A DNA stretch of 63,369 nt, the filler included, from an uncultured Methanosarcinales archaeon (GTDB taxonomy: Archaea > Nanobdellota > Nanobdellia > Woesearchaeales > CAZKBD01): assembly GCA_964550945.1 (NCBI GenBank). It is 4 parts of 3 records of this genome, joined end to end, with 100 filler letters (N's around TTAATTAATTAA, not from the genome) between each part and the next. Parts side by side here need not be neighbours in the genome. Positions count along the whole stretch, not along the records: positions 1 to 10,146 come from CAZKBD010000002.1; 3 more parts are not named here. One strand, written 5' to 3'. Position numbers and translations under genes: made by a program. The notes under the pieces were generated by a model. It searched no databases and had not been told where the DNA came from. It worked only from the letters and a program-made list of their open reading frames with translations. Every line of letters starts with the position of its first letter. Position 1 is the stretch's first letter. This document shows, piece after piece, positions 1,788-59,538 of the stretch.

Positions 1788-1910
1788 TGTCAAAAACTAC
1801 CAATCAGAGATGAGTGACATGCTTAAAACCACCCTGACTTGAGGGTAGTTTTTGAGCATGCTCAGAATTCCACCTTGGCTATCAATTAGTAGGCTGGTGG
1901 AATTCTGACA
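1788..1910. repeat. composite palindromic element (two hairpins joined at TGAGCATGCTCA)
   Basis: IR tcaaaaactacc 1790-1801 / ggtagtttttga 1844-1855; IR tcagaattccacc 1862-1874 / ggtggaattctga 1896-1908; related copies at ~28069 and ~33422. Confidence 0.85.
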
Positions 1911-26616: not shown

Positions 26617-28147
<1,531 letters not shown>

Positions 28148-33128: not shown

Positions 33129-33426
33129 ATGTCAGAAATATACCCTCGGTCTCTTAGAAATCAGAGATTTCTAAAGAAAAGATTGATTTTGTCAAAGAAG
33201 ATGAAAAAGATGATATAATCTCATTTTCCACCAGTGTATTTCACTGGTGGTTTTGTTTAAAGACAAACATCAAGTGGAAAATGAGAACAAAAAAATCCGA
33301 CCCGAGCCTATAAGGCGAGCATACCACCAGTCTATTTGACTGGTGGTGGTCGGATTTTTTTGATTACTGGAATGTGCTGTTTCTGCTGGTGTGGACTACA
33401 TTGTTTCGGGAGATCATCATTTGACA
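33129..33426 (+). pseudogene. PIN-domain toxin remnant interrupted by palindromic insertions
   Basis: KEKIDFVKEDEKDDII (33173-33220) and LECAVSAGVDYIVSGDHHL (33367-33423) lie in different frames, separated by hairpins. Confidence 0.75.
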
Positions 33427-33543
33427 TGTCAGAAATCGCTAATGCGCACGCTCGAGGGGTTTTAACCCAGAGTAAGCAAGCGATTTCTGAGTGTTTGAAA
33501 GCAAAGCTTTCTAACAAACCAGAAATTTGTAAAGCAAATTTCT
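33155..33543. repeat. cluster of palindromic elements
   Basis: IRs tagaaatc/gatttcta, tctcattttccac/gtggaaaatgaga, aaaaaaatccgacc/ggtcggattttttt, tcagaaatcgct/agcgatttctga, gaaagc/gctttc, agaaatttg/caaatttct. Confidence 0.88.
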
Positions 33544-33591
33544 CATGGTATATAAAGTATAGAATCCTTTTTCCATAAGAAATAAAACCCG

Positions 33592-41936: not shown

Positions 41937-42104
41937 ATGGTGAAAAGAAAGATTTCTATGACTATTGATAGGGATGTCTATGATGGTTTCAAAGATTTTT
42001 GCCAAAAGAATGGCATGAAGGTTTCTACTAAAGTTGAATTGTTAATGAGGGAAGCCACAACTAAAGATCAGACTCTAAAAAAATTCATTGAGCAAATCAA
42101 GTAA
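41937..42104 (+). CDS. ribbon-helix-helix (CopG-like) regulator, not in the ORF track
   Basis: Manual translation MVKRKISMTIDRDVYDGFKDFCQKNGMKVSTKVELLMRE..., 55 aa; alternating beta strand then two helices. Confidence 0.8.
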   Translation: MVKRKISMTIDRDVYDGFKDFCQKNGMKVSTKVELLMREATTKDQTLKKFIEQIK

Positions 42105-42159
42105 GCCACATTTTCCATTTATATTATATTTAATTTTGGGCGCAAAAGGCGCAAATGTG

Positions 42160-45100
42160 ATGAAATGTAAAAAGAGGTTTGGGCTATTAGTAGCCCTAAG
42201 TTTAGTAATAGTCGTATTAGTAACTCTATTAGTTAGTGCCCTCTATCTTGACAAAAGGGAATTTCTGGTTGGGGAGAGTGTTATAATAAACACGAGCTAC
42301 CTGAACAGTTCTGGGCTTCGATTGGATATTTCTTCTGGTAACCTGACCTATAGCTATTTTGGCTCTGAAAACGAGATTGAGTTTATTCCAAACGAAGAAG
42401 GACATTACTTTGTTGAGCTATTCAACCTGTCAGCTAGTAATCTAGCAGATAGCACTGATTTTTTTGTTAATACTGGCAACATATCAACACAGATAATCAA
42501 CAAAGACACCTATACATTAGGAGAGACTGTAATTATCAATCTTGGCTCTTTTGGCGAAATAGAAGAAATTTTGATTAGGGGCGGGAAAAACGATTACAGA
42601 TTTATTGGCAATACCACCAGCACTTTAATTTTTAGGCCTCCGGCAATTGGTGACTATCAAATAAATATCATCTCAAAAAATCTAAGCTTCCAGAAAAGCT
42701 TCAGCGTTGTTGCAGAAGAACAGAAAAGCTTATTTGAGATTACAACCGATAAAAAAGAGTATTTTGTTAATGAGCTAGTGAATATTTATTTTAATTTTAT
42801 AGGGAATGACAGCTATGAGCTGATAATAAAGTCTGATGCAAACACCTACCAGTTCTTGGGTGTGCCTGAAAGCCCGTTAAAATTTATTCCGAAGCAACAT
42901 GGAGAATATAGGATTGAATTATGGAGCGGTTTCAATCTATTGGCTGCTTCTTTGTTTTCTGTAAAGCCTGAGAAAGCAGAAGAAACAGCTAAGAGGATAT
43001 CTACTGATAAAAAGGAATATTCTTTTGGGGATACTGTTTATATCACTCTTGAAGGTAATGCAACTGAGTTAAGGATATTTAATGAAAATAATTCTTATGT
43101 GTTTGAGAGTCCTGTAAACAGTATAAGCTTTGTTCCAAAAAGGGCCGGGTTATATACCCTCACCGCGGTTTTTTATTTAGGGAATGTTAGTGAAGAGGAA
43201 CATATTGATTTTTATGTCAAGGAAGAAGAGAAAAAGTTCGATTATTTTTCTCTTGATAATGAGGCTGTTATAAAAATTGATCTTTCTGATGAACTCGAAG
43301 CTAGAAAGACAATCATTGATAGGATATTTGGGCTGTCACCCATTGAGCAAATAAGGGCATATGTTGAAAACCAAACAGAAAATAAGAATTTTAATCTATC
43401 GATAGATAAGCTGCAGGGCAGCGAATTTATTATAAATATTAAGACTAATTCAAATATTGAGCCTGGATTTTATAGGCTTGTAGTAGAGGCTTATATTCAT
43501 GGCGACTTAGTTGTTAAGACAAGGGATTTCCAGTGGGGGAATATAGCAGAAGAAGTGTTTGAGAATGCTACAATAACCAATGAGGCAGCAGCTGAGATAG
43601 AAAAACAGCTAAAATACAATTTTTTAGCTTCTGAGATGGCTGTTATTACTGTTGATTTTACAAGCGAAGTAAACAAGCCAAGAACAATATTAGAAGCTGC
43701 TTTGAAGAGAACAAAGGTTGATAAGATAAGCGCCTATGTTGAAGGAGAAGAAAACAATACAAATTTTAATACCTACATTGAACCTATAGAATTTGATAAA
43801 TTTTCTGTTAAACTCTCAGACAAGAATCTTGATCCAGATGTGTATAATCTAATAGTTGTTGTAAAATCAGATGATGCTTTCTATGCAAAACAAGTTCTGT
43901 TTAACTGGGGTTTGGAGGGTATAGAGCAGATAGAAGAGAGAATCAAAATTAAAAATAAGACCACGCCCTTAAAGGAAATTCTGGATATAACAAAAATCAA
44001 TGCAACAGAAGGGATTATTGTTGAGAATGCGACAAATGTTTCTTTGGCTAATATTACAAATATAACTGGAGTAATTGAGAATATCACAGGGACCAATATT
44101 AGCGAAGCTGTTATAACTAATTTAACAGCTATTAATCTACCAATCAATAAATCACAAAAGTTAATTAACTTAAGTACTAAATTAATTAGTGAAAATGAAA
44201 CAAAAAACAGGTTTTCTATTAGGGATTCAGCCAAAGCAAAAAAAGAAAATTTTAGTTTAAGATTCCTAAAAAACGGGAATCCAATAAACGAGCTTGCTGA
44301 GAATGAGAAATATGATGTTGAAGTAGAGCTAGAGGCTGAAAAAGTAAAAAAAATCTTGTTTAAAAATCTTAAGATAGCACAAACTCTCGATTTAGGGATA
44401 GATAGTGTTTCTTTTGAAAAACCTGGCATCAAAAACAAAAAAATTTTGAAAAGTTATGCAATAGATTCGTCGCAATTGAATTTCACTGAAGCTACCGTAA
44501 TAATTATGGCACAAGGGACTGAGCTGTATAAATGTAAGGATTGGAGCTTTGCTGAGCAAAGATGTTATGGCAACTGGGAAAAGATTATGGATATCATCCC
44601 TGGGCAAGAATATTCTTTTATATTAACGCCCGGTGATCCAGGATATGCAGAAACTGGCGTTGCTTCTGTAAACACAAAAAAATCAGTTTATCATCCTGGT
44701 GAAACTGCTGAAATAATCATTGTTGTGCTGGATATTGCAGGACATTTGGTTTCAAATGCTAATGTTAATCTCGAAATTAGTGGCCCTAATGGGCAAAAAA
44801 CATATTATTCAACTAGTGATATGACTGTTTCTGAAACATCAAGGGGAATCTATGAGTCTCTTTTTGAAACTGGAATTGAAGGTAATTATTCTATGATTGT
44901 GCATGCTGAGCGGGATCTAGTTAATTCAACAATGCACTCTTATTTTACTGTGAGAGATTATTATGAATTTGATATTATAAGAAATACGCCAGTAACCACC
45001 GACCCATGGAAGGGCGCATTTGATTCTGCTGTAAGGATAATATCATTTGCAGATGTTGGAATATTTAATTTTACTGAGATATTGCCTGGAAATTTTACTA

Positions 45101-48100
45101 TTACTGATTCTGGCGGCGCTATTGTTGCCAGCACTTCAGATTCTAAAATCCTGATATGGACCAATCTGGATAACAATTCTGTTGTTAGCTATTCTGCTTT
45201 GCCTCCTTTTAAAACACCTGAACTTTATTCTATAGGGCCTAGCAGGGTTAATTATGGGTCTAGCGAATTCATTGAATTCAGGCCTTGGTATCTTGCTGTA
45301 GATCCAGAGGTTACAAGCTTCTTCGATAATTTTGGCACTGGAACTGAGCCAGATGCAGCAAAATGGACTGAAACAGGGGGATTGTGGGATATAGTAAGTG
45401 GGAGAGGCCATGCTGAAAATTGTGATCCTCCAGGAGACCAAATAACATCGATAAGTATTGACCTATCACAAAGCCTATCAGCTAATCTGAGCTTTGCGTG
45501 GGAAATAAATGGGATGGATAGTGGTAGCGAGTGCCTATACCTTGACTTGTACAACAGGACCACATGGATAACCCAAGTTTGGTCTAGATGCGGAGCTAAT
45601 GCAGCAGGAACACAAGTGATAGATCTAGCAGGGTATATAGGGGGAAATTTTCAGCTAAGGTTTGATTGCCAATGCGATAACCCAAGCGATGATGCATATG
45701 TTGATAATGTAAATTTAACAAGTTTCCAGGCAGCTGATACGCCGCCAACATGGTCAAATAACCTTGTTAATGACAGTGCAATCTATCAGGGAGAATGGGT
45801 TAATTTTACAGTCCAATTTAATGATAATCTTCAATTGAATTATTCAATATTCAGCACTAATCTCTCGGGGAGATGGGCAAATGATTCAATAGTAAAATTC
45901 ACAGCAAAGCCGCAAAATGCGACGAATTCAACATATATCAACCAGACTGCAGGGTATGTTGTTGGGTGGAGATTTTACGCAAATGACAGCATAGGGCAAT
46001 GGAATGAAACATCTATTTTCAATTTCACTGTCTTAGGCGTATCATGGAACAATAAATCCCAGATGAGCTTTGGAGCAGTAGAGGCTGGAAGCATCAAGAG
46101 CTTCAATAGTACTATAGCGTCTTATGGGTCAAATACCAATGCTGCTGTAGCTTGTTTTGGCAACTGCAGCTATTTCCAAAGCAATTGGTCAACTGTTGCG
46201 ATGACTGGCAATTCTTTAGACATAATGATAAACTGCAGCGGCTCTTTGGCAGGAACCTATTCTGCTAATTACACTTTAGGATCGACACAGGATAAGATCA
46301 ATGACAGCATCCCTGTGAGCTGCACAATACAAGATACAGCTGCGCCAACAGTCCAGCTTGAAACCCCTGCCAATAACTCGTTTTGGCAAGAAGGATTCAA
46401 TATTGACTTCAATTTTAATGTTTCTGAAATTGCTGATTTGAGGAATTGCACTTTGATAGTTAATGGGCGGATCAATAAGACCAACAATACAGAAATTCTA
46501 AAAAGCACGGCTGGGCAAAAGATAACTCAAACAGTTGGAATTGGCAACTATAACTGGAGCATAAACTGCACAGATGTTAATGGCATTACTGGGGCGTCAT
46601 ATATCTACAATCTTACAGTAGATCAGGACCTATCAGCTCCGACTATCACGATAGTCTTTCCATTGAATGGATCATCTACTAATGATAATCCTGTTTACTT
46701 AAATATAACCACTAATGAAAATGCAACCTGCAAATACAATTCAACTAACTCTTCATTCAACTTTAATGTCAGCGGAAAATTATTCACAAATACTGTAAAC
46801 TTGCTGCATTCAGAAACACTTGGCAGCCTAGCTGAAGAAAATTACGCTTATTACATAAAATGCAATGACACTTTTGGCAATATAAACAACAATGCAAACC
46901 AAGCTTATACTAATTTTACTTTTGACAGGGCTATCCCAAATGTTAGCTTAAATTTTCCTGCAAATAACTCAAATTATTCAATCTCTAATGTGGTCTTTAA
47001 TTGGACTGCTTTTGACAGCTATGCAGACAACAACCTGAGCTGCAACCTAACAATTAATGGGCTTGTTAATGCTTCTAATATTGGCTCATTGAACAACAGC
47101 CCAAGTAACAAGACAGTATATATGAATAATGGGACATATTATTGGAATGTAACTTGCTGGGATGATGCTGGCAACACAAATAATTCAGTTTATTGGGTCT
47201 TGAATATTGATGGGGATGGACCAATAATACCTTCAGCATCTGTTAGCTCATCTCCGTCTGTTGCATCAGCTGGAAGCTCGATTGTAATTACTGCTAATGT
47301 GAGTGATGGCTATTCAAATGTTAGCACAGTGTTTGTAAATATTACTTTGCATACCTCAGGCACACACTACTCGTACAAGATGGCTTCGATTGGGCAAAAT
47401 CAATACAGCTACACATTTACTGATACAGCCACAGTTGACATTTATGATTATACCATATGGTCAAATGACACAGCAAGCCCTACAATCAATTTTGGATCTT
47501 CAGGGCTAAACTCATTTGAGATAGCTGGAATTAGGACTATACTAAGCATACAAACATTAAACAAGACATATGGCCAAAACAATATTGTAAATATTTCCCA
47601 AAATCAAAAAAACCATACAGCTAATCTTGAGAGCGCTGGCAGGACAATATTTGCTTATAACTCCTCTGGATTCAAGAGGTATAACTATTCAAATTATCTA
47701 AATGAAGCACAGCATGCTTATTACAGCCAGGCTGCAGGCGCAAATCCTCCTAGCTCAGGCCCTGTAATCACTGGAGAAATTGAATTCACTGCTGCTTATT
47801 ACGCAGCCTCGAATTTCTCTGACGATTCAAGAGTGGATGCTGGGCCTGCAAATGATATCAAAAGCCACAGATTCCAGTTTAATATCACTACAGATGTTTC
47901 TTTGATACAGAATATTGTTCTATTTTACGAGGGGCATAGCACTGGCGGAGAAACTATTGTGTTGTATGTTTGGGATTATTCGTCTCTTGCATGGGAGTCG
48001 CTTGGAAGCTATAGCACAGCTGGTGTTGACTGGAAAGCAAGCTATACTAAATCGTCTAGCTTATCTAATTACATAAACTCGAGCGGTTTGCTGCAAATGG

Positions 48101-51100
48101 CTGTGGTTACAAATACTCCTGCCAGCGCTGAGCGCCTTAGGACTGACCATGTCCACCTTAATGTAAGCTGGTTAAATGAAACAGATGGAGAGGCAAGCTC
48201 TTCCTTTGTAAATTATACTTCAATCGGATCAGAAAATTATACTAAGCTGACAGACATAAACATTGACATAATCACTGGGCATTACAATGCAAGCGGTTCG
48301 ATAATAGCGGGCAATAATTATCCTGATTTAGAGGTGCAGGTTTTTGATGGAGGGCAATATTCTTACAATTATTCCTGCAGCTTAAACAGCACCTATAGCA
48401 ATGGAGGAACTTTTGACTATAACTGCACAGACCAAATAGTGAATAAGACGATTCTTGCAGCATGGGCCAACGCCTCAAACAGAATGATAAGGGTGAGGGG
48501 CATAAATCTTGACTCAGAAGGAGCTGGACAGGATATGTTAAACTGGAGCGCTGTATATGTGCATTTGGAAACTCCATCAAAAGTTGAGAATTATGGATTA
48601 TTAAACCTTTCAGGCAGGCTATTATTAAAAATAGAAAAGCTTAATGGTACCAACTGGAATACTGTAAACGTGCTGCATAATGATTCATTAAATGTGGCGG
48701 TGAACCAGTCTATTGACATATCCTCTTATTGGAATGATGACAACTGGACTACTGATACGAGAGAGCTAGGCGAGTATAGGGCATATTCAGCACTTACTGA
48801 CTCCAGCGGCAATGTATTGCAGCATCAGGATGGCAGCTATCTGAATGACTCTTTTATTTTTAATATAAGCTATCTTAAGATTGAGATTCAAAACCCAATC
48901 AATGGATCAACAGTTGATGCCACTGGATTTTGGGCGAATATAAGCTTGAATGACAGCTATTACTCAAGCGGCGGCTGGTGCGTTTTTAGCATGGATAATG
49001 GCGCTAATATAACTATGAATAATGATAGTGGAAGGCACTTCTACAATTACACTAACTATACAACAGTTGCGCAGCACAATATCACTTTTTATTGCAATGA
49101 CACCAGAAATGTGATAACTCATGCTGTTACCCTTTTTAGCGCAACTGACCAAACCTCACCAACAGTTAACCAGATGTACCCTCCGAATGACGCAGATGGC
49201 CTTGGGTCTGAAATAACCTTCAAGTATAATGTCAGCGATTTAGTCTCAACAATTGCGAATTGTACGGTCTATGTTGATGAAGGAAGCGGTGGAGAGATTA
49301 AGCAAACGAACTTCTCTGTGTCTAAGGATAAGGAGATGAATACTACTATTAGTGGGATATCTACAGGAGAAGCGCATACATGGGTTGTTAAATGTTATGA
49401 TAGCTCTACTAATAATAACCTTGGCGCTTCATCAACAAGAAATTTCTTTGCTGGCACTGATTCAGATCCACCAAGCATTGGATTGGGAAATCCCCAGGAT
49501 GATGATATAAGGTCAAATAATGATGTTACATTCTTTCACTATGCTTATGACGCTTCAGGAATAGATAATTGTACCTTGATCCTAAACCAAAGGGCAAATG
49601 CCACAAACCAATCTGCAGTTAAATTATCGTTTACTGTTACTGATAATAATATAACCCTTACAGATATGCCTATTGGCCAATATAATTGGACTGTCAATTG
49701 TACAGACAGCTCTTCTTGGCACAATATTGGAACTTATGAGCCGCACAGGAATCTGACAATTATCCAGGATACAGACTATCCTGCAATAACCCTTATCTGG
49801 CCTCAAACCAGCTATACTGACAGCGATGGAAATATTGACTTTCAATTTAATGTAACTGATGCTTCTTCAGGAATAACTAATTGCAGTGTAGTCATAAATG
49901 ATACAATCAACAGTACAGATGCAACAATATCAGAAGGGACTACAATTACCATCCCTGTTTATAATATATCTCAAGGAGACTGGAATTGGTACATCAATTG
50001 TACAGATAACAGCTATCAGACTAACAGAAATAATTCAGAACGAAGAAATTTCACTATCACTATTCTACAGAATCTTATTGTAAATGTAAGTACTAATCAA
50101 AGCAGCTATCAGAAAGGGACTGAGCAAAATGACACAATATACACTTTAACAAGGGTAACTGACCAGCTAGGCAATGCTTTAAACTCTTCTGTGATTACAG
50201 ATATAATAAGCACAAATACAACATTGCAGTGGTGGAATACTAGTTGGAAGAGAAGGAAAGCCATTTATTTGAATGAGACTGACGGCTTTAATAGAGACCA
50301 ATACCTTATTGAGGTTAATGTCAGCGGTTTAGCAGGATTTGTAACAAACTGCAATTGGCAATTAAGAATCATTGAGAATATAACGACCAAATTTTCAGAG
50401 GTTCCATTCCAAGTTCTAAAAGGCGATAATTCCACATGGTGCAGCGTAGCGTTTAAGGCAAACCTAACCGCTAATAAAAACGAACAAACTAGGTATTACG
50501 CTTATTACAATTATTCAGGAGCTGCAAACCCGAATTATAATGCAGTGGTTATTCCTGGCATAAGGATATACAATTATTCAAACTATGGGGCTGATGGGCA
50601 TCGCGCTTATTACAGCGATAATCCCTCTAGTGGTGGGCCACAGCCGCCAAGTATTGGCCCTGCTCTTGATGGCGAAGTTGAGTTTACGAGCCAACAGTAC
50701 AATAATATAAAAACATCAGATACAACGAGAGCAGCAACTTCTCAAGTGGCTACAGAGCGAAGCTTCAAATTTATCATTAACACCACAGGCAATGTTTCAG
50801 ATATGACTAACTTAAGCTTTTATTGGCAAGGCTATTCTGAAGGCAGCACTTCACAGCCAGTGATACTTTATTTACGAAATTTTACAGGCTCAAGCTGGAA
50901 GCAATTTGGCGAGCATTCCACTTCAGCAGGAGATAATACCACCCAAAACTGGACAAACAAGGGAATATCAGATTATATAAATTCTACCGGCCAGATGGTA
51001 ATTGCAGTAGTTACTGCTGATCCTACTGGAGGAGGTGACTTCTTCTATACAAATTACATCTATGCAACAACAACAATTGAAGCTCGGAGCAATATATCCA

Positions 51101-54100
51101 GTTTGGGAGTAGTACAGGAATTCATAAATAGGAGTATAAATGATACGGGATCTGATGGAATCTTTGGCTTTAATATCAGCAGCGATGGTTTGGATTTAGG
51201 ATGGTATAGCGCAATTTCAAGGGTCAGTTCAACTAATTATCAAAACGCTACTAATAGCACATTATTTAGGATCATTGCAGATGTCACAGCACCGCAAGTT
51301 AACCTGATGTCTCCAGTACCATCCTATTCAAGTACCACAGGAAACATCACTTATGAGTATAATGTTTCTGACTGGCATAGCAGTATTGCGAACTGCACTT
51401 TGATAATTAACAACAACAGAAACATCTCTAATCTCACAGCAATAACTGAAAATTCCAAATTGAATTTCACATTGAACAGTATTAGCAATGGAGATTACAC
51501 ATGGAATGTTAATTGTACTGATAACAGCGCTAATAATAATATTGGAACTGGCACATCAAGGGCATTCTCTGTGCAGTTTGACTCTAGGGGGCCAGGCATT
51601 AATCTGCTCACACCCACCAATTGGTGGAATGATACCAATGGAGCAGTGAATTTTACGTATAATGCGAACGATGATTACAACAATATTGCAAATTGCAGTT
51701 TGGTTATAAATGGCACAATCAACATAACAAGAACAAATGTTCCTGAAGGCGTTACACAGGATTTTGGGCAATGGAACCTTAGCAGCGGAGACTATTACTG
51801 GTACATCAATTGCACGGACAGCAGCGCTGCAAACAACATGAACCAATCACTTATTAGGAATTTTAGCGTTCAAATTGATACTGTTGCACCAAGCATTAAT
51901 ATTCTGTCTCCTGGCATAACATCTCAAAGCACCACAGGAAATGTTTCTTTTGTATTTAATGTGACTGACGCAATTTCAAATATTGCAAACTGCAGCATAA
52001 TCTTTAATGGAACAATAAACTTCACTAACTCTAGTGTTAACAAAAACACAATGCAGAATTATACAATTTTTAACATTACTAATGGGCTTACTTTGTGGAA
52101 TATCAGTTGTGCAGACAATTCAGAGAACTATAATATTAACATAACAGCCTCAAGAAATTTGACTGTGGCAACTGACACAGATGGGCCTGCAATATATTTA
52201 GAGGATCCTCCATCTGATGCGCAGGTTACAATCACTGATGTTTTCTTTAAGTATAATGTTAGTGATTTGGCTAGCGGAGTAGTGAATTGCAGCCTATTCA
52301 TAAATGGCAGCATAAACTGGACTAACACTAGCATCCAGGAATCAAGGAGCCAGAACTTTAGCATATACAGTATTGCTAATGGGGATTATGTGTGGTGGGT
52401 GAATTGTACAGATGACTGCACTTTAAATAATAATGCCATGTCAGAAAAAAGGAATTTGACAATTGGGCTGGATACAACTCCTCCTGTGATAACTCTTCAA
52501 TATCCTCCTGAGACAGGCTTTAATGATACTGATGGAACTGCCACATTTAGGTATAAAGTAAATGATTATGCTTCTGATATTGCAAACTGCAGCATTATTA
52601 TTGACGGCAAACTAAACCAAACTAATTCCTCGTATATTTATGAGAATAAAGACAATCAAAATTTCACAATTGCTAATATCTCCAACAGCACACACACATG
52701 GCAGATAAACTGCACTGATAAAGCTGCAATACCTAATCAAGGCAATAGCAGCATCAGAATCTTCTTAATTAATTTGGATTTTGATGGGCCTGCTGTTGCA
52801 TTAATCTCTCCGCAAAACAACAGCTTGGACAGTGACGGGCATGTTACTTTCAGCTATAATGTTAGCGATGCTATTTCTGATATATCCAACTGCAGCCTCA
52901 TAATCAACAATCAGCTTAACAGAACCAATACAAGCGTGGTTGAAGGAGCAGCTCTGAACTTTATGTTATTAAATATGTCTGACGGCCAATACAACTGGAG
53001 TGTAAATTGCAGTGATAATTCAGACAGCAGAAATACAAATAGCTCTGAAACAAGAAACCTAACTGTATTGATTGATAATGTTCCTCCTGCTATAAATCTT
53101 TCGAGCCCTGCAAACAATACTCTAGATACAGATGGGATAAGGATATTCTATTACAATGTTTCAGATTACCTGACTAATATCACTTCATGTTCGCTTATAT
53201 TCAATGGCCAAGCGCAAAAAACAAATACTTCTGTTAGAGAAGACATCATCCAGAATTTTAGCATGGAGAATATTGCAAACGGCCAATACAACTGGAGTGT
53301 AAATTGCACTGATGGCTCTGACAACCACAATGTAAATGCATCAGAAATAAGGAATTTCACAGTAATGGTTGATATAACGCCGCCTTCAGTAAGGCTAATA
53401 TCTCCAGATAACTTTACCCAAGATATTGATAATAATGTATTTTTTGTTTATAATGTAAGCGATTATTTCCCAATTGCAAATTGCAGCCTGATAATTAATG
53501 GCACTCTCAACTGGACTAATAGCTCTATTCAAACAAACATATCGCAAAATTTCTCAATATACAATATGCCAAATGGAACATATGAATGGTCTATCAACTG
53601 CACTGATACAACTGAGACAAACAATAGGAATAAATCAGAGACAAGGATATTGATTGTTGAGCCAGATGTCACTGCTCCTTTAATAAATCTGGAATACCCT
53701 CCCCAATGGCTTACAGATACAGATGGGGACGTATATTTTAATTATAATGTGAGCGATTTTGCAAGTGGAATAGCAAATTGCAGTTTAGTAATCAATGGAG
53801 CAAGGAATTATACCAATTCTAGTATAATAGAAGGCATATCGCAAAATTTCTCTATATTGGGTATGGCAAATGGAAACTATTCTTGGCAAATAAATTGTAC
53901 AGACACAAGCATAAGGAATAATGTTGGCAACAGCTCAATCAGAAATCTGACTATTGGCACAGATGTCACAGGGCCTACAGTGAATTTGGTTAGCCCGTCT
54001 AATAATACAATCACTCCAGACAGAACAGTTATTTTTGGCTATACTGTTTATGACACAGCTTCTTCTATCCGCAATTGCAGCTTAATGATAAATGACATTG

Positions 54101-57100
54101 TGAATAGAACAAACACGACAGTTACAAACGATGAAAATCTGGTGCAAACATTCACTATGCAAGATATGCCTGAGAAAAGCTATATATGGAGAATTAATTG
54201 CTCTGACAGTGCAAACAATTTTGGCTACAGCACTTTGTATAACTTCACAATTAACTATCCAGACTTACTCAATGTGCTGATCAATGCCACTAACCAGTCA
54301 TATGAGGAAGGGAGCATTGTTAGATTTACGACAAACACAACAGACAATGCGACTAATCAGTTGAATGCTTCTCTTAGCGTTGATATAATCCAAGGCAATG
54401 CAAGCTTTGGATGGTGGAACACAAGCTGGCGCTACAGAATACCAATTTTCATAAACAGCACAAATGTTTCCAGGATAGATAGGCTAATTGAGCAGAGGAT
54501 TAATTTCACTGAAAGATTAAATAGCGAGCTAAGCCTGCAGAACAGCTTTGACCACAAATCAGTTAGAGTGGTTGAGCTGGCCAGCAACCAATCAAACGAA
54601 ATCCCAAGCCAGTTTAATCTGGATAGTGATTATAATGCGCTAACAAATGCTATTGGAACAACATATTGGATCTTAAACTCAACTACACAACAAAATACGA
54701 TAAGGTATTACTATATCTATTTTGAGACTGCAGACAATTCAAAGCCCGGCAAGAATTATTCTATGCCCACACTTAACTTTTATGGAACCTCAAAAACAGT
54801 AAGCTACAATGGAGGGAGCATAACTGCTGACAAAGTTGCAGTAAATCAAAGCGGGGGCTCTTTTAGTCTGCAATTTGCTAATGGAAATGAGCTTCAAGGC
54901 CAGGACAGCATAGGCTACCAAGGAGGAGGCAGCATATGGAATATAACTCTAGCTAACACGCTGCTGACAAATCTGCATTCAACAATTGTGCCGTTCTCGA
55001 TAATGACTCAAGGCTATCTGTCAGCTAACAATAGCATTTCTGTTGACACTGGCTCTGTTGTGACCAAGATAAGGGTAAACGGAAATGCGACATTGCTTGC
55101 AGACTCGAATGCAGAAATAAACTACACAATATGGTTTAGCGGATCAGAAATATTCATGAAAGCTCAGCTTTATGCTTATTTCGGAGCTGGAGCAAATGAC
55201 CCTGCAAGCCGCTATCAAAACATATGGCTTGCTTATCTGCTTGACAATGAAACTAACTGGGGCGCTTATCTAGACAATGGAGTGAGCATGCCCTTCTCAA
55301 GACAGCACAGGTATAAAAATACCCAACCCGGAGGAAATGATAATGTTTATGCCAGCAGCTGGTATCAGGAAAACGATACGCTAGGATCAATAAATGTCTA
55401 TGCGGAGAATTTTAAGAAAAACGGAGCTGAGCAGGCAAAGGGTGTTGTTATTTTTGATGATGGAACACAAACAGCCCCGGAATCAGACTCTATAGGATTT
55501 AATTACAATGAAAACCAGATAACAGCTGGCACGACTTACTATATCAATGCACTAATGGTCTTTTCCACTGATGGAAGCACTTCAAGGATTTTGAGTTTAA
55601 GGGAAGATATTGAATCACAAATAAACATTACAAGCTACAGGGCAGAGAAGTTGATCAACAGAACCAGCGGCATAACAACAAATGGCATTTTTTATAACAA
55701 TTGGAGCAGCACAAATTATAGCAGTGGCTGGTATAGCGCAGTTGCTTCTGCAAACATCACTCCATTTTACAAATTTGGATCTGATTATGCATTATTTGAG
55801 ATTACTGCAGATTTAATAGTACCAACAATCAATATTAGCACTCCAGAAGGATGGATAAAAGATGCGAATATAACCTTTGCATATAACCCCTTCGATAATA
55901 ACCTAATGATAGCTAATTGCACATTAGTGCTAAATAATGCGGCTAATATCACAAACAGCTCAGTGATAAACAGCCAATGGAATTATTTCTATTTGTATAC
56001 TATGCCTCAAAGAACTTATAACTGGAGTGTAAATTGCACTGATGAGGCAGGCAATAAGGGCAATAGCTCACAAAAAACAATCTATGTAGATTATACAAAG
56101 CCTTCAATTAATTTGAGCTATCCAAACAATTCTGTCACAATAAACACATCCCTTGTTGAATTTAATTTCACAGCACTTGATAATATGGCTGTTAATTTAA
56201 CATGCAACCTAACATTAAATGGAGTAAACCAGGGAACTGTAAGTGCGACAAATGGAACACTCACTAACATAACGCAATCACTAGCCCAAGGCACTTACTT
56301 GTGGAATATCACTTGCAATGATCTTGCTGGAAATGTAAACACTTCTGAAACAAGGACTTTTGTCATTGATACAGGGCCGCCAATAGTGACTTTGGTAAGC
56401 CCAAAATCACCAAACAATTGGGATAAGGATGGCAACATTACTTTTATTTATACAGCAGCAGACTCATCAACAATATCAAATTGCTCTTTAATAATCGATG
56501 GCAAACTAAACTGGACTAACCATTCAATTAGCAATGGAGGGTATAATAATTTTACAGCAACATCTATGTCTAGCGGCAGGTACAATTGGACAGTAAATTG
56601 CAGCGATGCTGGAGCACAAATTGGTACAGCTGCTGCTGAATTATTCTATGTTGATCTGATAAAGCCAAATATTACCCTGAGTAGGCCTCAGCAAAATGCC
56701 ACCTTAAATATAACGACTATTGAATTTAATTTTACAGCAACAGACAACTTAGATACCAATCTAACATGCAACCTCACTTTAAATGGGGTTGTAAGGCATG
56801 AGGCTTTCCAGGCAGACAATGGCTCAATAACCTCAAAAGCAGTCTCGAGCTTGACAGATGGATTTTATTTGTGGAATGTGACATGTGTAGATAATGCTAC
56901 GCAGGCCAATACAAGCGAAACCTGGAATTTCACCATAGACACAGTACCTACAATTGCTCTCAATAATCCTGACAACAATCGCTGGTTTAGCGCTAGAAAT
57001 ATCACATTCTATTATGCGCCAAGCGATACTGTTGGCTTGGTGAACTGCAGCTTTATTCTTAACAGTATAGTTAATCAGACAAATAGAACTATATTAAATA

Positions 57101-59538
57101 ACAGCCAGAATAATTTTAGCATTTATAATGCTGGAGAAGGGCCATATAATTGGACAGTGAACTGTACAGATACTAATGGAAATATTGGAACTGCTAGTCC
57201 AAGGTTCTTCTATATTGACTTTACAAAGCCTTCAATTAATCTCAGCACACCATTGCAAAATGGCACCTATAATGTTACGGCTCTTGACTTCAATTTTACT
57301 GTATTTGATAATATGGATTTAGGATTGTTTTGTAATCTTACACTCAACAGCCAAATCAGATATGAGGCTCTTTTGGCAAATAATGGAAGTTTAGTTACCA
57401 GAACAATATCAAGCTTAACTGACGGGCTCTATTTATGGAATGTGACCTGTTATGACAATGCAACTAACACTAACACTAGCGAGACATGGAATTTCACGAT
57501 TGATACAATCCCTACATTGATTCTCAATGCACCGGCAAATGGAACTTGGAACAATACTGGAAATATAACCTTTTACTATACGCCTCAGGATGCAGTTGGC
57601 CTTACAAATTGCACTCTTATATTGAATTCAGCTGCCAATATTACCAACTCCACTATTCTTAACAACAGCATGAATAATATTACGCTTTATAATATGCCTG
57701 ACGGATTCTACAATTGGACAGTAAATTGCAGTGATACAAGTGGGAATATCGGAACAGCTGCTTTGCGATGGCTAAATATTGACAAAACAAAGCCTTCTAT
57801 TAACTTGCAAAAACCAGATGATGGCGCGACTTTAGTCAGCAGCATAGCACAATTTAACTGGACTGTTATTGACAACATGGATAATGAGCTTATGTGCGAC
57901 ATTATGGTAAATGACACTATTAATAATACAAGAACAATACTCTCATATAACAATACACTCAATAATTATACTATAAGCGGATTTACAGATGGATTATTCC
58001 TTTGGAATGTCAGCTGCCAGGATAATGCTACTAATTTTAACAGCAGCATAAGTTGGAACTACACTATTGCAGAGCCTCCTGCAGTTACTTTGGGGAATCC
58101 GCTGAACAACAGCTGGACTAAAAATAATAATGTTACCTTTTACTTCACACCTTATGACAATTCAGGCCAAATAGCAAACTGCACTGTTGTGCTTAATGGC
58201 ATGCTAAACCAAAGCAACACATCTATCATCTATGGGCAGCTGAATAACATAACAGCAAATAACCTTCTTGATAATAAATACAATTGGACTATCAACTGCA
58301 GCGATAGGCTAAGCAACACAGTGGTAAATTTGTCGACTAAAATATTATATGTAGACACTACTGAGCCAGCTATCAACCTAAATTTCCCGACAGAAGGATC
58401 TGCACTAAACTATGATGATGTTATTTTCAATTGGACTTCTATAGATAACCTGGCTCTAAACATGACATGCAATCTTACTCTGGATGGTGCTGTTAATGCC
58501 AGCAATATAACTTCTTTGAATGGCAGCTTTACTAATACTACTGTGAGGGATATACCGCTTGGAGCGCATCAATGGAATGCAAGCTGCTGGGATTTGCTCA
58601 ATAACACTAACACTAGCGTTACGATTAGCTTTAATATAAACGCTCCTGATTTGACTCTTAATGCTTCTGAAATAACATTTAATGATTCTAGCCCAATTGA
58701 AGGAAATAATGTCACTATTAATGCTACGATTTATAACCTAGGCGGGATCCCAGCAAACAACTTTGTTGTGCAATTTTATGATGGCATGCCTTCTCTAGGC
58801 TATCTTATAAAAAATGTTACTGTCAGCACACTAGCCAATGGAGGGAATGCTACAATTAGCGCTTATTGGATTGCCAGATTAGGGGTGCACCAGATATGGG
58901 TCATAATAGACCCTGATTATGCGGTTACTGAATTGAATGACAATAATAACAATGCAACTAACAATATTTCTATTTCAATGTGGCACGTAATTTATGGCCA
59001 GAACATTGGAGACTTGATGCTGCGTGATTTTGAAAACATTACTGTGTTCAAATGGAATGTTCTAAATGCAAGCGGAGGCAATATTTTTATTGCTGATTCT
59101 GAGAGCAGCATAGTCTGGAGCAATCTTTCTGCTGTTGGAAGAAATATAACCGGCACGCCAGCTCCTGATGACTTTATTAATCTTGATGGTATTCTGAACA
59201 CTAGCAATTATACTGATTCTGTTAATGATACTTTCACATATAACGGCGCATCAAAACAGCTTGCAAACTTCACTATGTTTACTTACGAGATATACAATGT
59301 TTCGATAATTAACAGCACAAACACTTCTAATTTCATAACCGGCATATTATGGGATATGAGCGATGAAAATAAGGGCGAGTTTAATGGAAGCCAAGACTTG
59401 ATTTTTGTTACAAAAATTAACCCACATAAACAAGGGGCTTATGGCTCTTATGATTACGAAATAAGAGTGCCATCTGAGCTTAAAAAGTACAAAACAACAG
59501 ACATTTACTCGGTTGTGTTTTATGTTGAACTAAAATGA
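42160..59538 (+). CDS. giant (~5,790 aa) secreted Ig-repeat surface glycoprotein / adhesin
   Basis: Signal peptide from ATG 42160; about 29 ~100-aa repeats (DxxxP.I.L..P...NCSL...G.YNW.VNC.D); two WWNTSW (DUF2341-like) domains; CARDB-like domain; conserved C-terminal domain; very dense N-x-S/T. Confidence 0.92.
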   Translation: MKCKKRFGLLVALSLVIVVLVTLLVSALYLDKREFLVGESVIINTSYLNSSGLRLDISSGNLTYSYFGSENEIEFIPNEEGHYFVELFNLSASNLADSTDFFVNTGNISTQIINKDTYTLGETVIINLGSFGEIEEILIRGGKNDYRFIGNTTSTLIFRPPAIGDYQINIISKNLSFQKSFSVVAEEQKSLFEITTDKKEYFVNELVNIYFNFIGNDSYELIIKSDANTYQFLGVPESPLKFIPKQHGEYRIELWSGFNLLAASLFSVKPEKAEETAKRISTDKKEYSFGDTVYITLEGNATELRIFNENNSYVFESPVNSISFVPKRAGLYTLTAVFYLGNVSEEEHIDFYVKEEEKKFDYFSLDNEAVIKIDLSDELEARKTIIDRIFGLSPIEQIRAYVENQTENKNFNLSIDKLQGSEFIINIKTNSNIEPGFYRLVVEAYIHGDLVVKTRDFQWGNIAEEVFENATITNEAAAEIEKQLKYNFLASEMAVITVDFTSEVNKPRTILEAALKRTKVDKISAYVEGEENNTNFNTYIEPIEFDKFSVKLSDKNLDPDVYNLIVVVKSDDAFYAKQVLFNWGLEGIEQIEERIKIKNKTTPLKEILDITKINATEGIIVENATNVSLANITNITGVIENITGTNISEAVITNLTAINLPINKSQKLINLSTKLISENETKNRFSIRDSAKAKKENFSLRFLKNGNPINELAENEKYDVEVELEAEKVKKILFKNLKIAQTLDLGIDSVSFEKPGIKNKKILKSYAIDSSQLNFTEATVIIMAQGTELYKCKDWSFAEQRCYGNWEKIMDIIPGQEYSFILTPGDPGYAETGVASVNTKKSVYHPGETAEIIIVVLDIAGHLVSNANVNLEISGPNGQKTYYSTSDMTVSETSRGIYESLFETGIEGNYSMIVHAERDLVNSTMHSYFTVRDYYEFDIIRNTPVTTDPWKGAFDSAVRIISFADVGIFNFTEILPGNFTITDSGGAIVASTSDSKILIWTNLDNNSVVSYSALPPFKTPELYSIGPSRVNYGSSEFIEFRPWYLAVDPEVTSFFDNFGTGTEPDAAKWTETGGLWDIVSGRGHAENCDPPGDQITSISIDLSQSLSANLSFAWEINGMDSGSECLYLDLYNRTTWITQVWSRCGANAAGTQVIDLAGYIGGNFQLRFDCQCDNPSDDAYVDNVNLTSFQAADTPPTWSNNLVNDSAIYQGEWVNFTVQFNDNLQLNYSIFSTNLSGRWANDSIVKFTAKPQNATNSTYINQTAGYVVGWRFYANDSIGQWNETSIFNFTVLGVSWNNKSQMSFGAVEAGSIKSFNSTIASYGSNTNAAVACFGNCSYFQSNWSTVAMTGNSLDIMINCSGSLAGTYSANYTLGSTQDKINDSIPVSCTIQDTAAPTVQLETPANNSFWQEGFNIDFNFNVSEIADLRNCTLIVNGRINKTNNTEILKSTAGQKITQTVGIGNYNWSINCTDVNGITGASYIYNLTVDQDLSAPTITIVFPLNGSSTNDNPVYLNITTNENATCKYNSTNSSFNFNVSGKLFTNTVNLLHSETLGSLAEENYAYYIKCNDTFGNINNNANQAYTNFTFDRAIPNVSLNFPANNSNYSISNVVFNWTAFDSYADNNLSCNLTINGLVNASNIGSLNNSPSNKTVYMNNGTYYWNVTCWDDAGNTNNSVYWVLNIDGDGPIIPSASVSSSPSVASAGSSIVITANVSDGYSNVSTVFVNITLHTSGTHYSYKMASIGQNQYSYTFTDTATVDIYDYTIWSNDTASPTINFGSSGLNSFEIAGIRTILSIQTLNKTYGQNNIVNISQNQKNHTANLESAGRTIFAYNSSGFKRYNYSNYLNEAQHAYYSQAAGANPPSSGPVITGEIEFTAAYYAASNFSDDSRVDAGPANDIKSHRFQFNITTDVSLIQNIVLFYEGHSTGGETIVLYVWDYSSLAWESLGSYSTAGVDWKASYTKSSSLSNYINSSGLLQMAVVTNTPASAERLRTDHVHLNVSWLNETDGEASSSFVNYTSIGSENYTKLTDINIDIITGHYNASGSIIAGNNYPDLEVQVFDGGQYSYNYSCSLNSTYSNGGTFDYNCTDQIVNKTILAAWANASNRMIRVRGINLDSEGAGQDMLNWSAVYVHLETPSKVENYGLLNLSGRLLLKIEKLNGTNWNTVNVLHNDSLNVAVNQSIDISSYWNDDNWTTDTRELGEYRAYSALTDSSGNVLQHQDGSYLNDSFIFNISYLKIEIQNPINGSTVDATGFWANISLNDSYYSSGGWCVFSMDNGANITMNNDSGRHFYNYTNYTTVAQHNITFYCNDTRNVITHAVTLFSATDQTSPTVNQMYPPNDADGLGSEITFKYNVSDLVSTIANCTVYVDEGSGGEIKQTNFSVSKDKEMNTTISGISTGEAHTWVVKCYDSSTNNNLGASSTRNFFAGTDSDPPSIGLGNPQDDDIRSNNDVTFFHYAYDASGIDNCTLILNQRANATNQSAVKLSFTVTDNNITLTDMPIGQYNWTVNCTDSSSWHNIGTYEPHRNLTIIQDTDYPAITLIWPQTSYTDSDGNIDFQFNVTDASSGITNCSVVINDTINSTDATISEGTTITIPVYNISQGDWNWYINCTDNSYQTNRNNSERRNFTITILQNLIVNVSTNQSSYQKGTEQNDTIYTLTRVTDQLGNALNSSVITDIISTNTTLQWWNTSWKRRKAIYLNETDGFNRDQYLIEVNVSGLAGFVTNCNWQLRIIENITTKFSEVPFQVLKGDNSTWCSVAFKANLTANKNEQTRYYAYYNYSGAANPNYNAVVIPGIRIYNYSNYGADGHRAYYSDNPSSGGPQPPSIGPALDGEVEFTSQQYNNIKTSDTTRAATSQVATERSFKFIINTTGNVSDMTNLSFYWQGYSEGSTSQPVILYLRNFTGSSWKQFGEHSTSAGDNTTQNWTNKGISDYINSTGQMVIAVVTADPTGGGDFFYTNYIYATTTIEARSNISSLGVVQEFINRSINDTGSDGIFGFNISSDGLDLGWYSAISRVSSTNYQNATNSTLFRIIADVTAPQVNLMSPVPSYSSTTGNITYEYNVSDWHSSIANCTLIINNNRNISNLTAITENSKLNFTLNSISNGDYTWNVNCTDNSANNNIGTGTSRAFSVQFDSRGPGINLLTPTNWWNDTNGAVNFTYNANDDYNNIANCSLVINGTINITRTNVPEGVTQDFGQWNLSSGDYYWYINCTDSSAANNMNQSLIRNFSVQIDTVAPSINILSPGITSQSTTGNVSFVFNVTDAISNIANCSIIFNGTINFTNSSVNKNTMQNYTIFNITNGLTLWNISCADNSENYNINITASRNLTVATDTDGPAIYLEDPPSDAQVTITDVFFKYNVSDLASGVVNCSLFINGSINWTNTSIQESRSQNFSIYSIANGDYVWWVNCTDDCTLNNNAMSEKRNLTIGLDTTPPVITLQYPPETGFNDTDGTATFRYKVNDYASDIANCSIIIDGKLNQTNSSYIYENKDNQNFTIANISNSTHTWQINCTDKAAIPNQGNSSIRIFLINLDFDGPAVALISPQNNSLDSDGHVTFSYNVSDAISDISNCSLIINNQLNRTNTSVVEGAALNFMLLNMSDGQYNWSVNCSDNSDSRNTNSSETRNLTVLIDNVPPAINLSSPANNTLDTDGIRIFYYNVSDYLTNITSCSLIFNGQAQKTNTSVREDIIQNFSMENIANGQYNWSVNCTDGSDNHNVNASEIRNFTVMVDITPPSVRLISPDNFTQDIDNNVFFVYNVSDYFPIANCSLIINGTLNWTNSSIQTNISQNFSIYNMPNGTYEWSINCTDTTETNNRNKSETRILIVEPDVTAPLINLEYPPQWLTDTDGDVYFNYNVSDFASGIANCSLVINGARNYTNSSIIEGISQNFSILGMANGNYSWQINCTDTSIRNNVGNSSIRNLTIGTDVTGPTVNLVSPSNNTITPDRTVIFGYTVYDTASSIRNCSLMINDIVNRTNTTVTNDENLVQTFTMQDMPEKSYIWRINCSDSANNFGYSTLYNFTINYPDLLNVLINATNQSYEEGSIVRFTTNTTDNATNQLNASLSVDIIQGNASFGWWNTSWRYRIPIFINSTNVSRIDRLIEQRINFTERLNSELSLQNSFDHKSVRVVELASNQSNEIPSQFNLDSDYNALTNAIGTTYWILNSTTQQNTIRYYYIYFETADNSKPGKNYSMPTLNFYGTSKTVSYNGGSITADKVAVNQSGGSFSLQFANGNELQGQDSIGYQGGGSIWNITLANTLLTNLHSTIVPFSIMTQGYLSANNSISVDTGSVVTKIRVNGNATLLADSNAEINYTIWFSGSEIFMKAQLYAYFGAGANDPASRYQNIWLAYLLDNETNWGAYLDNGVSMPFSRQHRYKNTQPGGNDNVYASSWYQENDTLGSINVYAENFKKNGAEQAKGVVIFDDGTQTAPESDSIGFNYNENQITAGTTYYINALMVFSTDGSTSRILSLREDIESQINITSYRAEKLINRTSGITTNGIFYNNWSSTNYSSGWYSAVASANITPFYKFGSDYALFEITADLIVPTINISTPEGWIKDANITFAYNPFDNNLMIANCTLVLNNAANITNSSVINSQWNYFYLYTMPQRTYNWSVNCTDEAGNKGNSSQKTIYVDYTKPSINLSYPNNSVTINTSLVEFNFTALDNMAVNLTCNLTLNGVNQGTVSATNGTLTNITQSLAQGTYLWNITCNDLAGNVNTSETRTFVIDTGPPIVTLVSPKSPNNWDKDGNITFIYTAADSSTISNCSLIIDGKLNWTNHSISNGGYNNFTATSMSSGRYNWTVNCSDAGAQIGTAAAELFYVDLIKPNITLSRPQQNATLNITTIEFNFTATDNLDTNLTCNLTLNGVVRHEAFQADNGSITSKAVSSLTDGFYLWNVTCVDNATQANTSETWNFTIDTVPTIALNNPDNNRWFSARNITFYYAPSDTVGLVNCSFILNSIVNQTNRTILNNSQNNFSIYNAGEGPYNWTVNCTDTNGNIGTASPRFFYIDFTKPSINLSTPLQNGTYNVTALDFNFTVFDNMDLGLFCNLTLNSQIRYEALLANNGSLVTRTISSLTDGLYLWNVTCYDNATNTNTSETWNFTIDTIPTLILNAPANGTWNNTGNITFYYTPQDAVGLTNCTLILNSAANITNSTILNNSMNNITLYNMPDGFYNWTVNCSDTSGNIGTAALRWLNIDKTKPSINLQKPDDGATLVSSIAQFNWTVIDNMDNELMCDIMVNDTINNTRTILSYNNTLNNYTISGFTDGLFLWNVSCQDNATNFNSSISWNYTIAEPPAVTLGNPLNNSWTKNNNVTFYFTPYDNSGQIANCTVVLNGMLNQSNTSIIYGQLNNITANNLLDNKYNWTINCSDRLSNTVVNLSTKILYVDTTEPAINLNFPTEGSALNYDDVIFNWTSIDNLALNMTCNLTLDGAVNASNITSLNGSFTNTTVRDIPLGAHQWNASCWDLLNNTNTSVTISFNINAPDLTLNASEITFNDSSPIEGNNVTINATIYNLGGIPANNFVVQFYDGMPSLGYLIKNVTVSTLANGGNATISAYWIARLGVHQIWVIIDPDYAVTELNDNNNNATNNISISMWHVIYGQNIGDLMLRDFENITVFKWNVLNASGGNIFIADSESSIVWSNLSAVGRNITGTPAPDDFINLDGILNTSNYTDSVNDTFTYNGASKQLANFTMFTYEIYNVSIINSTNTSNFITGILWDMSDENKGEFNGSQDLIFVTKINPHKQGAYGSYDYEIRVPSELKKYKTTDIYSVVFYVELK

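Follow-up and report, generated by a model that had tools for sequence, protein, structure and literature searches.

Transposase-free elements derived from IS200/IS605 insertion sequences are known from Haloquadratum walsbyi, where these PATEs were described, in the part of the source available, as having no terminal inverted repeats (PMC3119063). The same text describes SMR-A, whose mover it terms enigmatic. In IS608, the cut-site and guide tetranucleotides pair according to a rule (C1–G2 and C2–G1, with the third base unpaired; PMC3201880), and an orientation bias is known for IS200/IS605 elements (PMC5027513). REPs tagged with CGTC or TGTC have been reported from bacterial phyla only, and the CGTC type seems, according to the accessible text of the defining paper, to have no dedicated transposase (PMC3733652). 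A survey of RAYTs, as far as its available text goes, found only the IS200 subclass in archaea (PMC6006769).

Here we describe what, judged from its sequence, is a real family of tiny gene-less mobile DNA in small-genome archaea. It was recognized in a 63,369-nucleotide stretch of joined contig pieces (the window) from an uncultured archaeon, the genome of which (G000; C-numbers denote its contigs) comprises 1.97 Mb and is 92% complete. Like PATEs as described, the elements have no transposase, fused IS ends, near-terminal hairpins in the main long subfamilies, no target duplication and a one-sided target of 4–6 bp, occur in very short terminal-only forms and are hit by other small elements. 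Unlike PATEs, these archaeal dumbbells have inverted termini of ~9 bp, fold their ends into abutting outer stems, appear to be cut one base later and have shortest forms without IS hairpins. With IS608 and ISDra2 (PMC3201880, PMC5027513, available portions) they share a guide 5′ of the hairpin foot whose pairing to the cut-site tetranucleotide follows the same register, with A as the third base, and orientation runs as expected for fork-coupled insertion; in contrast to these, the dumbbell is gene-less, and the transposase linked to it below is divergent and without tnpB.

The elements also resemble several REP-like repeats. As in the CGTC/TGTC-tagged REPs (PMC3733652), a TGTC or CGTC tag lies on the outside, the stem opens with A–T, dimers are head to head, copies occur within genes and a flanking transposase is absent; whereas those repeats are described with an unpaired tag and a CCA tail, in the present family tag and tail are paired across a bulge, the partners abut and the long forms contain IS ends. 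SMR-A (PMC3119063) is similarly ~110 bp long, has inverted termini, makes no duplication and inserts into PATE/IS605-type hairpins, but its termini were reported to be unrelated to any transposon, and the likeness is one of descriptions rather than sequences. REPINs and BIMEs moved by RAYTs (PMC6006769) share the paired bulged hairpins, the mosaic nesting and a mover in trans, yet the GTAG tag and the RAYT are both absent here. Our literature search, which left subscription journals, ISfinder and supplements (any of which could hold one) outside its scope, returned no published description of such an archaeal element, and the available parts of PMC13343696 and PMC6006769 contain none.

Copies in the window

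The preliminary description of the window had reported a conserved scaffold with interchangeable hairpins at 1788–1910 and 28069–28147, and a half-unit at a third site, on three different contigs. The scaffold is present at both positions, with centres at 1853–1864 and 28110–28121 (Table 1). The first two copies lie on one contig (C2), two pieces of which are joined in the window, and the third lies on C4, so the assignment to three contigs was mistaken. At the third site there is indeed a single unit, but it is a left-end unit that has been split at its centre by another double-hairpin element and whose second half is missing. Similarly, the segment at 1818–1834, which had been taken for a degenerate nested extra arm, is an ordinary decayed interior common to C1, C8, C13, C23, C25, C28 and C34; it opens with the right-end guide CATG and is able to pair with the centre in the minimum-energy fold. 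The claim that interiors differ yet remain self-complementary was confirmed: pairing at arm positions 5–7 was 0.898 versus 0.379 for shuffled partners (maximum 0.43; 296 units). Overall, the original observation was partly confirmed.

Table 1. Elements and parts of elements located in the window
Feature	Position	Strand	Remarks
Complete long element, 123 bp, decayed (copy 1)	1788..1910	-	Left end to right end along minus strand
Target side of copy 1, minus strand TTGAAA	1911..1916	-	TGAA, the guide-matched tetranucleotide, then A
Left end of copy 1: terminal arm, guide AATT (1901–1904), foot of decayed left-end hairpin	1896..1910	-	Layout as in autonomous left end of L270
Central junction of copy 1	1853..1864	.	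CATG, with one unpaired G and one unpaired C beside it, pairs with the two terminal dinucleotides
Right end of copy 1: guide CATG (1818–1821), decayed right-end hairpin (1797–1817), spacer, TGAC and one base	1788..1821	-	
Second copy, cut by contig end	28069..28147	-	Within V-ATPase subunit I frame
Left-end unit of third copy	33427..33491	+	Subfamily without IS-type inner hairpin; TGAC and A precede
Different double-hairpin element, ~54 bp, at centre of third copy	33492..33545	-	Folding z -4.9
Fourth, partial left end, overlooked in the preliminary description	33130..33177	+	Small hairpin 33152–33177 in its loop
Separate PATE of linked IS200-like clade	33219..33364	+	Left end preceded by ATAA; right end with guide CATA and TGAT; outer stem formed by each end

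Copy 1 folded markedly better than shuffled sequences (z −6.6 and −5.4 for the two strands; 0 of 200 shuffles as good). Contig X3 of the same study (853–2676) covers this copy with 0 differences; it is possibly from the source sample, so this match is not independent. The guide AATT of copy 1 predicts a target TTNA, and the target TGAA mismatches it at position 2; that the left-side motif originates from the target was seen at orthologous empty sites in other genomes. The V-ATPase reading frame that holds copy 2 stays open up to the contig end.

Several neighbouring features were also noted. The PATE at 33219–33364 represents a second family of the linked clade, with relatives at G000:C3:24738, C58:11424 and C148:713–850; its guide/cut pairs are canonical, both ends lie in abutting outer stems, and its right end is very similar to autonomous ends in L456/L457. 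The element inside the third copy belongs to a double-hairpin family of ~54–60 bp with another scaffold (also G000:C24, C45 and C81), which enters the main element at a single precise position in its centre. Farther along, 42088–59538 of the window holds a 5816-codon ORF with many Cys-containing repeats of ~99 residues, followed by a 731-codon ORF with related sequence.

Size and distribution of the family

The three copies first reported are not the only ones in the genome: the 10-bp centre occurs 29 times in G000, every time in scaffold context. Pattern scripts, from which all copy and unit counts derive, parsed 41 complete polar copies of 49–210 bp in G000. A generic scan yielded 109 hairpin units versus 3 and 1 in two shuffled genomes, some of the 109 being chance hairpins (6 of 18 loci inspected were in genes without the scaffold).

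The core was found in 7 of 61 genomes of the same order and, using a slightly different pattern, in 38 of 301 (2 of these 38 are flagged as unpublished), with 0 matches for the reversed control in both scans. Scanning a genome collection gave at least 114 stretches with the core and at least 97 loci with the scaffold. The titles of the scaffold-bearing records, taken as given, name Woesearchaeota, Pacearchaeota, Nanoarchaeota, "uncultured Methanosarcinales" (many records, among them L013, L016, L023 and L029) and one Saccharibacteria fragment; since the Methanosarcinales titles are only taken as given, we claim no jump to methanogens. Other bacterial matches to the core had no scaffold. Viral contigs contained 0 core matches and no Y1 relative, and a looser pattern found 120 stretches in them, with 6 single hairpins and no dumbbell.

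Structure of the element

Each copy consists of two hairpins with no spacer between them. A six-base centre (an unpaired base, four bases and another unpaired base) was present in 134 of 136 copies in a search that left the terminal bases free, and the terminal dinucleotides paired with the four central bases at the left foot in 132 of 134 copies and at the right foot in 133 of 134. Where the centre or foot was non-standard, the changes were compensatory in 11 of 13 cases on the left and 8 of 9 on the right. This pairing of the feet with the centre, its compensation and the pairing of the arms indicate that the centre splints both ends of the element together. The outer tag is TGTC (sometimes CGTC), the stem opens with A–T, and the tail, GAG followed by CA, is paired to the tag with compensation.

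The element is polar. One flank reads T-W-T, these bases being found in 92, 90 and 96 of 99 copies, and the opposite flank is free. Near-terminal hairpins of the IS200/IS605 type are present in the main long subfamilies, and CATG or CACG precedes the right hairpin in 29 of 46 cases; 26 of 153 polar copies are short at both ends and have no such hairpins. No transposase gene was found inside the element, nor any gene-holding loop of up to 4 kb. Composite copies joined to another recurring hairpin module, starting AAGTGGAAT, were observed at G000:C5, C36, C74, C87 and C161.

Insertion sites, nesting and orientation

Comparison of G163 with its congener G075 revealed five empty sites (s2, s3, s4, a and b) that differ by exactly the element, and one further site (c) that is off by one base. 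Among eight G075 copies examined, three had orthologues with diverged flanks (gap 0, −4 and +6) and five had no orthologue; the congener pairs G102/G179/G278 and G302/G058/G218 were too diverged for empty sites (66–79%). No target duplication above chance was detected at 1–8 bp in 126 copies, and none at the empty sites. The T-W-T motif is already present in the empty sites, indicating that it is the target sequence, and an A/T-rich motif adjoins insertions on one side only.

Copies also lie inside genes and inside each other. A 54-bp variant is inserted in frame within an IS200 gene, near-identical relatives of which are without it, and a G000 THUMP protein contains 36 residues that are inserted relative to its homologue in G163. 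Short forms nest in the hairpins (C8, C16, C59, L018 and L084) or arms (C20 and C68) of other copies, and insertions in the centre occur in L032, C24, C45 and C81. The nested cases C16, C20, C59, C68, L018, L032 and L084, together with L194, place the ends at the hairpin feet and the cuts one base beyond the canonical IS position; the five G163/G075 sites fit either register. The empty sites, the nesting and the missing inner gene support a non-autonomous, mobile element moved in trans. The preliminary description had proposed this for a REP/RPE/MITE-like element; the mobility and the mover in trans are supported, and the likeness to a MITE or a GTAG-type REP with its RAYT is not.

Further insertions were noted in passing. 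In G000, one copy of 111 bp lies in frame within an 1808-residue protein (C48:5133–5243), another at the start of a RelE-like gene (C101:371–480) and a third over a Nudix C-terminus (C147:598–651); the 146-bp copy at site s2 of G163 (L213) appears to interrupt a small gene. At L213:11240–11393, G163 also carries an unrelated GC-rich hairpin insertion of ~150 bp, absent from G075, with a direct repeat of ~12 bases at its bounds.

Copies along the 732-kb contig G163:C7 fall into orientation runs of 1 minus, 9 plus and 7 minus (runs p 7e-4), and 24 of 34 neighbouring pairs in other genomes were concordant among the matches listed; same-orientation stretches extend over hundreds of kilobases. The switch on G163:C7 (382–420 kb) does not coincide with either cdc6/orc1 gene (142 and 275 kb), and neither cdc6 nor skew placed the replication origin. 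In the assembled contigs, which drop rare variants, no joint skips the element, and among the read sets listed, none of RNA contained it.

Relationship to an IS200-like transposase clade

The end hairpins of L138, a divergent Y1 gene, resemble the inner hairpins of the long copies. The clade of L138 is large, with 429 and 320 clusters; the HxH and Y-x-x-x-Q motifs are intact in 240 of 240 of its proteins, and its best structure match is PDB 2xm3 (E 1.7e-10). The end hairpins of the clade are separated by 608–801 bases in 35 of 36 loci, showing that the linked element is tnpA-only. The transposase scored 45–53 bits on the IS200 model (cut-off 55) and at most 19.9 bits on the RAYT model (cut-off 80). 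That low RAYT score, the missing GTAG tag and the finding of no element at the 30 Y1 loci first checked speak against a REP/RAYT system of the GTAG type.

Besides the pairs named above, the IS608 rule includes the pair C4–G4. The linked clade obeys this rule in 45 of 46 short right ends (the first and third base being fixed by the search pattern) and in 36 of 43 left ends, versus 9.8 in shuffles. Right ends of copies in G000 share up to 26 identical bases with the clade, and 7 of 66 ends reach 18 (maximum of the shuffled control, 15). The outer arms of the scaffold likewise match IS terminal sequence, and autonomous copies appear to end right after the tetranucleotide, the next base being variable. 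On these comparisons, the inner hairpins of the long copies are the two end hairpins, left and right, of a divergent IS200-like element that is tnpA-only.

We compared guide and target in the 47 long copies whose left hairpin could be parsed, out of a total of 118 long left ends; these copies are related and therefore do not represent independent events. The pair C4–G4 was formed in 43 of 47 (shuffle mean 22.1, maximum 33) and C2–G1 in 29 of 47 (mean 17.6, maximum 27); C1–G2, formed in 30 of 47, lay inside the shuffle range (mean 23.5, maximum 33). The fit holds for the tetranucleotide that finishes one base before the element. The empty site s3 violates the rule, and no guide covariation was seen among 32 short forms. 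What is new in the family, on this evidence, is the presence of IS200-like end hairpins in the long copies with a guide-predicted target, a PATE-like working with inverted termini and a shifted cut register.

The distribution of the clade argues against the link. It was not found in G000 (92% complete) or in the copy-rich G009, G075, G102, G163 and G302 (91–100% complete), one weak G163 match being another IS200, and 4 of the 38 genomes with the core have it, as do 13 of the 263 without. No autonomous copy with the dumbbell scaffold as its own ends was seen among ~110 loci, and when the whole class was searched, the clade turned up in 5 of 401 genomes, in none of them with the scaffold as ends. 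Most clade proteins come from ~1-kb contigs, which bins tend to lose, but the G163 and G302 genomes are almost complete. Among the matches listed, just 16 of 66 ends match the clade at 14 bases or more, and window copies 2 and 3 belong to subfamilies with hairpins other than those of the clade; the right-end hairpin of copy 2 (28083–28101), for instance, has a CTTTAG-type loop.

At L307, two same-orientation dumbbells with CGTC tags (506–698 and 1745–1939) accompany a Y1 gene that belongs to the clade and contains an in-frame stop, one lying directly behind its right end and the other upstream; L307/L308, one locus filed twice, is the sole flanked Y1 gene seen. The loops of autonomous end hairpins often hold small hairpin insertions of the GCGA/AGCG type (L312, L318, L324, L330, L331, L333 and L334).

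Two other candidate movers were rejected. The Y1 family as a whole is present in 15 of 61 genomes and in only 3 of the 7 core-positive ones, and the IS200 type of G000, found in 22 genomes at 60% identity or more, occurs in 6 positive genomes and has other end hairpins; no element lies beside either of the two Y1 genes of G000. This IS200 type (L184–L199) is 66–96% identical across many families, in at least 22 of 301 same-order genomes, and thus seems to be spreading recently; no clear right-end hairpin follows its stop. Both IS200 tnpA genes of G000 (L001 on C153 and L002 on C146) lie directly upstream of apparent cassettes of a target gene, a template repeat and the start of a reverse transcriptase, which may be diversity-generating retroelements.

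Discussion

The best explanation, which we consider reasonably probable, is that an IS200-like, tnpA-only insertion sequence of Woesearchaeota-type archaea gave rise, through its fused ends, to this family of PATE-type non-autonomous single-strand elements, which the candidate Y1 (HUH) transposase or a close relative moves in trans. The exposed single strand would fold into a dumbbell, the centre of which would hold both ends together. The transposase would then cut and join the ends into a single-stranded circle. The circle would integrate at a site to which the guide can base-pair, the lagging-strand template being the probable location. The two cuts would lie one base 3′ of the IS608-type position, a shift that the dumbbell may cause, and the 50-bp forms may be reduced versions that use the same machinery, by a route that the model leaves unspecified. 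The sequences themselves show the precise insertion without duplication, the polarity with a target motif 5′ of the left end alone, the IS-type hairpins and guides at both ends of long copies, the target base that the left guide sets, the ends at the feet of abutting hairpins and the orientation runs; the circle, the identity of the enzyme and the involvement of the replication fork are inferred.

Alternatively, an unseen enzyme may read the dumbbell itself (bulge, 4-bp core, bulge) and exchange strands at the centre of the core, with the IS hairpins as captured cargo. The enzyme could be a RAYT-like specialized Y1, an integron-type tyrosine recombinase, or host flap-cutting followed by ligation; jointly, we regard these options as possible but rather unlikely. 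Such an enzyme would account for the exact coincidence of the ends with the hairpin feet, for the compensatory changes in the core and for the one-base offset from the IS ends, but cargo should not steer targeting, and here the target can be predicted from the left guide in the register of IS608. It would also account for the precise insertion of short forms that have no IS hairpins and for the absence of the linked clade from copy-rich genomes; the arrangement of left- and right-type hairpins, however, is always that of the IS, the target motif lies on the side of the left end, and the outer arms of the scaffold match IS terminal sequence. Moreover, the neighbours of 97 loci include no conserved enzyme gene (their clusters are housekeeping genes only), and these varied housekeeping genes show no cassette-like orientation of the integron attC kind.

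If the element were a structured regulatory RNA or a terminator retained because it benefits the host, this would explain the strong folding and covariation as well as the many copies that adjoin gene starts. As the origin of the family, this role is already largely refuted, and we consider it very improbable: presence and absence differ between congeners, and copies lie inside genes, including the 36-residue THUMP insert. The position of copies relative to genes is that of the background, gaps between convergent genes are not enriched (4 of 42 two-sided gaps compared with 84 of 729), the orientation of copies is not linked to gene sense in G000 (7:7), and no Rfam match near the gathering score was found in 1500–2200. 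Least probable of all is a MITE moved by a DDE transposase. The terminal inverted repeats of ~9 bp do start with TG and finish with CA, but target duplication is absent, the centre is conserved and the halves are self-paired. In addition, it is the centre, and not the opposite terminus, with which each terminal dinucleotide covaries, and the polar element has its target motif on one side only.

On a broader and tentative reading, which as a whole is less likely to be right than wrong, the family would bridge IS200 ends to TGTC/CGTC REP dimers and SMR-A: a self-splinting two-bulge dumbbell cut by Y1 one base off register, in which long forms are targeted by an exchangeable four-base guide and 50-bp forms need the dumbbell alone. 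On this reading, the tag corresponds on the opposite strand to TGAC, the cut site at the right end of the IS, and one further base, so that the bacterial CGTC REPs may share the origin and the mover of the family.

If the link to the transposase fails, an undescribed archaeal REP-like family would still remain. The dumbbell family combines the build of CGTC-type REPs with the behaviour of SMR-A and now has a named candidate enzyme clade, offering a candidate enzyme for a kind of repeat whose mover had been unknown. The predicted cut positions and the guide rule are directly testable by oligonucleotide assays. In the biology of these archaea, the several guide variants in one genome represent a natural retargeting of single-strand transposition, and dumbbell insertions provide archaeal genes with in-frame peptide inserts.
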